This document shows, in pieces, positions 13,983-14,740 of a DNA stretch of 16,731 nucleotides. Both the position numbers and the translations under genes were made by a program. Where the stretch lies: IMG/VR virus record IMGVR_UViG_2576861133_000011; one strand, 5' to 3'. Source of the stretch: a virus (lineage: Duplodnaviria; Heunggongvirae; Uroviricota; Caudoviricetes). The notes below the pieces were generated by a model. The model did not search any database. It was given only the letters and a program-made list of their open reading frames with translations, and had not been told where the DNA came from. Position 1 is the first letter of the stretch, and each line of letters opens with the position of its first letter.

Positions 13983-14228
13983 GTAAGCGTAAACTGACCG
14001 CCGTATGTAGCCATCAGACGAGAATTGGTAACTTAGACGCCCATCTGATATAGACGGACATCTAAGTATGGAATTACAGGACTGGCGAAAAGAACCTCGT
14101 AAAAACTATTCGAATGAATTCAAACTTCGTATGGTGGAACTGGCATCACAACCTGGAGCTTGTGTTGCACAGATTGCACGTGAAAATGGCGTCAATGATA
14201 ATGTTATTTTCAAATGGCTCAGGCTCTG
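13983..14228 (+). mobile_element. 246-bp fragment of an IS66-family element (left end plus 5' part of tnpA)
   Basis: Begins with GTAAGCG, which I recall as the typical IS66-family terminus. 13983-14228 is identical to 14230-14475 (offset 247). Confidence 0.75.
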
Positions 14229-14229
14229 A
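14068..14229 (+). pseudogene. Truncated tnpA copy (53 codons then stop) inside the IS fragment
   Basis: Same reading frame and sequence as the first 53 codons of tnpA at 14315. Reads ...KWLRL then TGA at the duplication junction. Confidence 0.7.
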
Positions 14230-14314
14230 GTAAGCGTAAACTGACCGCCGTATGTAGCCATCAGACGAGAATTGGTAACTTAGACGCCCATCTGATATAG
14301 ACGGACATCTAAGT

Positions 14315-14740
14315 ATGGAATTACAGGACTGGCGAAAAGAACCTCGTAAAAACTATTCGAATGAATTCAAACTTCGTATGGTGGAACTGGCATCACAACC
14401 TGGAGCTTGTGTTGCACAGATTGCACGTGAAAATGGCGTCAATGATAATGTTATTTTCAAATGGCTCAGGCTCTGGCAGAACGAAGGGCGTGTTTCGCGG
14501 CGTCTTCCGGTAACGACCTCTTCTGACACTGGCGTTGAATTATTACCTGTAGAAATAACGCCGGATGAGCAGAAAGAACCTGTGGCGGCCATTGCGCCGT
14601 CTTTATCCACTTCCACTCAGACCAGAGTCAGTGCCAGTTCCTGCAAGGTGGAATTCCGTCACGGTAACATGACGCTGGAAAATCCATCGCCAGAGCTGCT
14701 CACAGTGTTGATCCGTGAACTGACCGGGAGGGGAAGATGA
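14315..14740 (+). CDS. tnpA: IS66-family accessory protein TnpA (orf1), 141 aa
   Basis: First ORF of the IS. Its N-terminal half (ELASQPGACVAQIARENGVNDNVIFKWLRLW) is HTH-like. Confidence 0.8.
   Translation: MELQDWRKEPRKNYSNEFKLRMVELASQPGACVAQIARENGVNDNVIFKWLRLWQNEGRVSRRLPVTTSSDTGVELLPVEITPDEQKEPVAAIAPSLSTSTQTRVSASSCKVEFRHGNMTLENPSPELLTVLIRELTGRGR

Follow-up and report, generated by a model that had tools for sequence, protein, structure and literature searches.

The window, that is, the whole 16,731-nt stretch of viral DNA analyzed here (IMG/VR record IMGVR_UViG_2576861133_000011, Caudoviricetes), contains near its end an adhesin gene followed by an insertion sequence. The ORF of the adhesin, an inverse autotransporter, occupies positions 9252-13922, and a terminator scan placed its intrinsic terminator at 13934-13960 on the plus strand. 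The insertion sequence, which the earlier note had recognized as an IS66-family element, is ISEc23, with GTAAGCG ends and the gene content of the family: three consecutive plus-strand ORFs with IS66-specific Pfam domains encode (i) TnpA (14315-14740, 141 aa, HTH_Tnp_1), (ii) TnpB (14737-15087, 116 aa, TnpB_IS66, 1e-36), and (iii) the TnpC transposase (15118-16731, 537 aa, LZ_Tnp_IS66, zf-IS66, DDE_Tnp_IS66 at 9e-98, and DDE_Tnp_IS66_C). The tnpA stop and the tnpB start share the four nucleotides ATGA at 14737-14740.

The stretch 14230-16731 on the plus strand is 100% identical over 2502 nt to positions 1-2502 of the 2532-nt ISEc23 in NZ_CP018991.1, the chromosome of E. coli ST131 strain Ecol_AZ146 (L001 below). 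The window stops 30 nt short of the right end of the element, so that the right inverted repeat lies outside it. The left terminal inverted repeat, GTAAGCGTAAACTGACCGCCGTAT, was located at 14230-14253 (plus strand) by aligning it with the reverse-complemented right end of the L001 element; of the GTAAGCG...CGCTTAC terminal repeats, the left one is thus seen at 14230, and again at 13983, and the right one is present in the identical L001 element. In L001 the element is flanked on both sides by the same 8-bp sequence (GGGTTTTG / GTAAGCG ... GCTTAC / GGGTTTTG), and the corresponding empty site of strain AH21H052 (L037) has a single GGGTTTTG. The left copy of this target-site duplication occupies 13975-13982 in the window, and the right copy, seen in L001, falls beyond the window edge. 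ISEc23 therefore inserted genuinely at this site with an 8-bp target duplication, 22 nt downstream of the adhesin terminator and leaving the adhesin gene uninterrupted. Among the ST131 genomes listed, L001 and no fewer than 38 others, at least 39 in all, have a single ISEc23 at exactly this position, and one ISEc23 downstream of the prophage adhesin is already annotated in many complete genomes of this lineage.

The window has the same insertion site and the same GGGTTTTG duplication as these ST131 chromosomes; it differs from them, and from every other record, in 247 additional nucleotides placed before the element. Self-comparison showed that 13983-14228 and 14230-14475 are 100% identical over 246 nt each, and Tandem Repeats Finder reported a period of 247, 2.0 copies and 100% matches for the IS left end. 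An exact repeat of this length is far beyond chance. The first copy (plus strand) corresponds to ISEc23 positions 1-246, as follows from its identity to 14230-14475, and deletion of 13983-14229 restores L001 exactly; in ST131 genomes with one ISEc23, the match span is accordingly 524 nt (771 - 247). Both copies open with GTAAGCG, and each contains a tnpA start codon, at 14068 and 14315, respectively. In the first copy the tnpA frame (14068-14229, plus strand) runs for 53 codons and closes with a TGA whose A is the lone base between the copies. The description of the repeat in the earlier note, two identical copies starting with GTAAGCG and carrying 53 tnpA codons, the first of which ends at the junction, is borne out by the alignment and the ORFs.

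The lone base, 14229, is an a, and the junction reads ...GGCTCTGAGTAAGCG... Compared with its native neighbors, this base is foreign on both sides: position 13982, preceding the first copy, is g, and position 14476, following the second copy and corresponding to native IS position 247, is also g.

Two further structures of the same kind are present in the adhesin gene, both on the plus strand. In the first of them (span 10920-11224), a 152-nt segment at 10920-11071 is followed by a at 11072 and by a second copy at 11073-11224; in the other (span 11430-11932), a 251-nt segment at 11430-11680 is followed by a at 11681 and by a second copy at 11682-11932. A scan of the window at every period from 10 to 1499, in which structures were kept if the identity run covered at least 80% of the period, returned only these three perfect duplications, which share an X-a-X anatomy (two exact copies of a segment X around a single a), and in all three the period exceeds the identity run by exactly 1. 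The native neighbors of the spacer are T/T at 11072, T/G at 11681 and G/G at 14229, and a matches none of them. As a control, the 39 other loci examined were searched for structures with a period one longer than the identity run, and none was found. Since the same anatomy occurs in ordinary adhesin coding DNA, the duplication of the IS left end is not IS-specific; a single process produced all three duplications.

Comparison with L001 confirmed that the window differs from it only at the three two-copy tandem duplications. When one X and its a were deleted at each of the three sites, no mismatches to NZ_CP018991.1 remained over 8,635 nt; thus, every site combines an exact duplicate, a non-native spacer and restoration of the reference upon removal. 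NZ_CP196264.1 likewise matches window positions 1-11071 at 100% identity, if an IS of that strain is set aside.

The earlier note had proposed that a complete IS had inserted into its own copy. According to this reading, the resident ISEc23 was entered by a second one immediately behind position 246 or 247, and the remainder of the outer element (248-2532), together with an 8-bp duplication, is expected past the right end of the inner element, beyond the window. Mutual insertion of IS66-family elements is indeed known: ISEc23 resides in ISEc8 with a GGAGCAGA duplication in NZ_CP024158.1, and at another ISEc8 position in NZ_CP144927.1. In these nests on IncF plasmids, as in the window, a truncated IS66-family sequence directly precedes an IS66-family left end. 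The second copy begins exactly at the IS end, the two copies are identical, as a recent event would leave them, and a G247A substitution is known in a related IS66 variant. However, the real ISEc23-in-ISEc8 nests have the native flank of the host IS and a bracketing 8-bp duplication, whereas the flank base in the window is non-native: to the left of the inner IS, ...GGCTCTGG is expected, and the window has ...GGCTCTGA, with a at 14229 in place of the g of IS position 247. An extra mutation would be needed exactly at the junction base, although the other 2,748 IS bases match the reference. Moreover, self-insertion leaves unexplained the two duplications of the same anatomy in non-IS DNA 2.3-3 kb away, and its junction was present in none of the collections searched (see below). 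The foreign a and the twin duplications in the adhesin gene speak against the proposal, and we regard it as very unlikely. Derivation of the outer copy from the natural G247A variant was considered separately and rejected, since the known variant differs elsewhere in the first 246 nt and the first copy equals the second.

The common anatomy and the recurrent a imply one process for all three duplications, and this process could in principle be biological, namely backward template switching over 152-251 nt in which one untemplated A was added each time. Both adhesin events agree with such an origin in that they preserve the reading frame and are silent at the codon formed by the junction: the periods of 153 and 252 are divisible by 3 and leave the ORF open, and the new codons, ATA and GGA, specify the same amino acids as native ATT and GGG. 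The chance of in-frame periods is about one in nine if the duplications are artefacts, and selection acting on real in-frame duplications would fit them as well. On the other hand, the only microhomology shared by the breakpoints of the IS repeat is TGG, which would yield a period of 246 and not 247; microhomology-mediated tandem duplication, which would add no base, was rejected for the same reason. The duplicated segments start at points set by where exact repeats end, 251 nt further on, which a polymerase would not sense, and three events would have to fall within 3.5 kb of one strain, with junctions found in 0 of 5,426 complete genomes. We know of no bacterial mechanism that produces repeated tandem duplications with a one-nucleotide A filler, and an origin of this kind appears exceedingly improbable.

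We consider it probable, with good but not full confidence, that the left-end duplication is an assembly artefact absent from the DNA of the organism. Judged from sequence comparison, the real locus most likely contains a single ISEc23 with a GGGTTTTG duplication, 22 nt past the adhesin terminator, and on its right side ...GCTTAC would be followed directly by GGGTTTTG TTGTTGGGG, leading into the alpha/beta-hydrolase gene as it does in L001. We infer that the cause was a join made by an assembler or a scaffolder. The window would then consist of four assembly segments, 1-11071, 11073-11680, 11682-14228 and 14230 to the end, whose adjoining ends share 152, 251 and 246 nt in the true genome, and the overlapping ends would have been abutted instead of merged, with one placeholder base, now a, at each join. 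At the IS, the adhesin-side segment would have run 246 nt into the multi-copy ISEc23 and the next segment would have started from IS base 1, so that abutting the two would repeat IS positions 1-246. We interpret the first copy as the redundant repeat overhang that ends the preceding segment and base 14229 as the placeholder at the segment join; our guess is that an N served as the placeholder and was afterwards turned into A. The 53-codon tnpA would probably be a by-product of the join and not a real gene, and the duplications at 10920-11224 and 11430-11932 probably arose as artefacts in the same way. The earlier note had named an assembly artefact as its alternative, and it is this alternative that the three X-a-X joins and the exact restoration of L001 favor.

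The positions of the segment boundaries agree in part with this explanation. L001 contains an exact repeat of 337 nt (3390-3726 = 3747-4083). The second segment corresponds to L001 3476-4083; it starts with the last 251-mer of the first repeat copy and runs up to the final base of the second copy. The third segment (L001 from 3833) starts with the last 251-mer of the second copy, and the first base of the fourth is IS base 1, where a multi-copy repeat begins. Thus, exactly 251 nt separate the starts of two of the four segments from the end of the 337-nt exact repeat, and all segment overlaps are at most 251 nt; 251 nt is near one of the usual Illumina read lengths. With respect to repeat edges and the 251-mer, three starts and one end fit, and the ends of the first and third segments are short by 13 and 5 nt, respectively. 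The overlaps of 152, 251 and 246 nt do not correspond to one constant k-1. The breaks look like contig ends limited by k-mer or read length and joined by a placeholder base. The boundaries that fit fall where an assembly of this kind breaks, at positions that a polymerase or a transposase cannot sense.

Some scaffolders insert a single n for unresolved overlaps. The structures in the window resemble the false duplications known from contig joins in the exact duplicate of a contig-end overlap with a minimal placeholder, in boundaries that lie in part at repeat edges, in their restriction to one assembly and in the restoration of the reference upon removal; they differ in that the placeholder is a and not N and that the overlap lengths (152, 251 and 246 nt) vary. 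Scaffolders that ignore contig overlaps have been reported to yield duplicated features (bioRxiv 10.1101/2020.04.29.065847), and in ALLPATHS-LG overlapping contigs are stored as negative gaps (PMC5368935).

The junctions were then sought in other assemblies with 51-nt probes centered on the junction, neither half of which can seed a match alone. No copy of the IS junction was detected in 5,426 complete E. coli genomes, where the sole match of the probe was an unrelated partial one in paoD, and the same probe found none in the plasmid and phage collections. Its 40-nt exact pattern, with either A or any base as the spacer, was absent from IMG/VR, the GTDB species representatives and the JGI metagenomes. 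Both adhesin junctions were likewise lacking in these complete genomes; about 560 of the 5,426 contain the adhesin repeat region. In this search of the repeat region across complete genomes, matches in multiple pieces confound the ranking of repeat arrangements. Among the collections searched, the junctions therefore occur in this assembly only, as expected for a duplication created by an assembly join.

Contig ends within ISEc23 are common in public data. Draft contigs often end about 245-250 nt inside the element, so that flank segments with overhangs of this kind are ordinary. The same 53-aa truncated TnpA is on record, and in the 10 places shown it is always a gene cut by a contig end, which coincides with IS position 246 in 9 of the 10. 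Nevertheless, position 246 was rejected as a special breakpoint: TnpA fragments of 49-58 aa are each found on 23-77 contigs, without enrichment, in a baseline taken at codon resolution, from which the 54-aa form (372 contigs) was set apart as a true nonsense variant. Contigs covering the right end begin 248 nt from the IS end, not 246. A truncated ISEc23 remnant that ends at 246, a possible fork in the assembly graph, was looked for in a spread sample of the plasmid hits, and none was found.

The 54-aa form represents an ISEc23 variant with a C248T substitution (contigs L013-L018), in which a CAG codon of tnpA is changed to TAG; it was found on 372 contigs and at several genomic sites, two of them in the single genome GCA_053151375.1. 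This distribution suggests that the variant still transposes despite the truncated TnpA, possibly by complementation in trans. It was rejected as a source of the structure in the window, as the first copy is otherwise identical to the second. A related IS66 element (L019-L026) carries G247A, which changes TGG to TGA and gives a 53-aa TnpA. In L019-L024, the 53-aa gene is followed by molybdopterin oxidoreductase and two-component-system genes and not by tnpB and tnpC; among the contigs of this element shown, only L026 has both tnpB and tnpC downstream. Some of the contigs have a Tn3-family transposase nearby.

A partial ISEc23 left end in tandem with the full element was observed once outside the window, in NZ_CP144927.1, an IncF plasmid of E. 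coli SCPM-O-B-7615 (L039, 3493-6107), and this is the only left-end stub among 4,299 records and 8,923 IS places. As in the window, the partial left end (IS 1-67) and the full ISEc23 lie between the copies of the target duplication, in the order GAACCAAA, ISEc23 1-67, ISEc23 1-2532, GAACCAAA; in contrast to the window, where the stub has 246 nt, the duplicated left end on the plasmid has 67 nt and no spacer base. The plasmid structure is nested 83 nt into ISEc8 and lacks a remainder of an outer IS. Self-insertion followed by recombination could have left it as a real footprint, or it could be another assembly error, and, given this case, left-end duplications of ISEc23 may sometimes be real.

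Applied to the window, such an origin would involve self-insertion in direct orientation and subsequent recombination between the inner and outer elements, which removes one IS length and leaves IS 1-n followed by the full IS between the original target duplications; alternatively, a real local tandem duplication would have started at the transposase cleavage site. The left target duplication of the window abuts the first copy directly, as this scenario predicts, and the plasmid supplies the predicted anatomy. The scenario nonetheless predicts either no spacer or the native g, and the window has a non-native a; the one candidate precedent among the 4,299 records and 8,923 IS places is itself putative, and the scenario gives no account of the two adhesin duplications, whose spacer is identical. 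We therefore consider a real stub followed by a full IS unlikely in the window. Also improbable is the bolder proposition that the stub is real, that ISEc23 at times targets its own left end, and that the window and NZ_CP144927.1 are two independent examples; if true, the stub would be a footprint of self-targeting in the IS66 family. To our knowledge, the transposition mechanism of this family is still poorly understood, and in the literature on IS66 and ISEc23 transposition we found nothing on end duplications.

With an assembly join as the preferred explanation, the left-end duplication has little biological weight. The adhesin ORF of the window, 1,556 aa, is enlarged by 135 residues relative to the 1,421-aa protein of the reference genomes (WP_022645049.1), and a protein look-up returned no record of the exact 1,556-aa form. 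Because these 135 residues stem from the two other proposed joins, the adhesin should be taken as a protein of 1,421 aa, not 1,556; the additional residues, like the truncated tnpA, are probably not real, and readings that rest on the perfect 153- and 252-nt repeats of the adhesin should be discounted likewise. The pattern itself, two copies of X around one odd base with X no longer than a read, offers a cheap screen for this class of artefact elsewhere.

The earlier note had also inferred repeated IS activity beside the adhesin gene. This cannot be deduced from the duplication, but independent ISEc23 insertions do occur in the prophage of related genomes. In ST131 relatives, ISEc23 occupies three different sites of the same lambdoid prophage: (i) after the adhesin terminator in L001 and in the window (13983), (ii) within bet in strain AH21H052 (L037, 7087-9618), and (iii) within an alpha/beta-hydrolase gene, 177 nt further downstream, in THO-015 (L038, 3811-6342). 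Repeated activity of ISEc23 in this prophage across strains is thus genuine.

Several other features of the prophage were noted. The window begins exactly with the stop codon of a prophage integrase (window 1-1143; L037 1637-4143), and the window ends exactly with the tnpC stop; both edges are gene boundaries, not contig ends. In the reference genomes the integrase gene adjoins icd, which places the integration site of the prophage at the icd locus. Positions 7726-7838, within the gene for the replication protein (7285-8304), hold an array of short 19-23-nt repeats, TTTACCNGAANCAGGTAAA-like and partly palindromic, that resembles the iterons of lambdoid origins.
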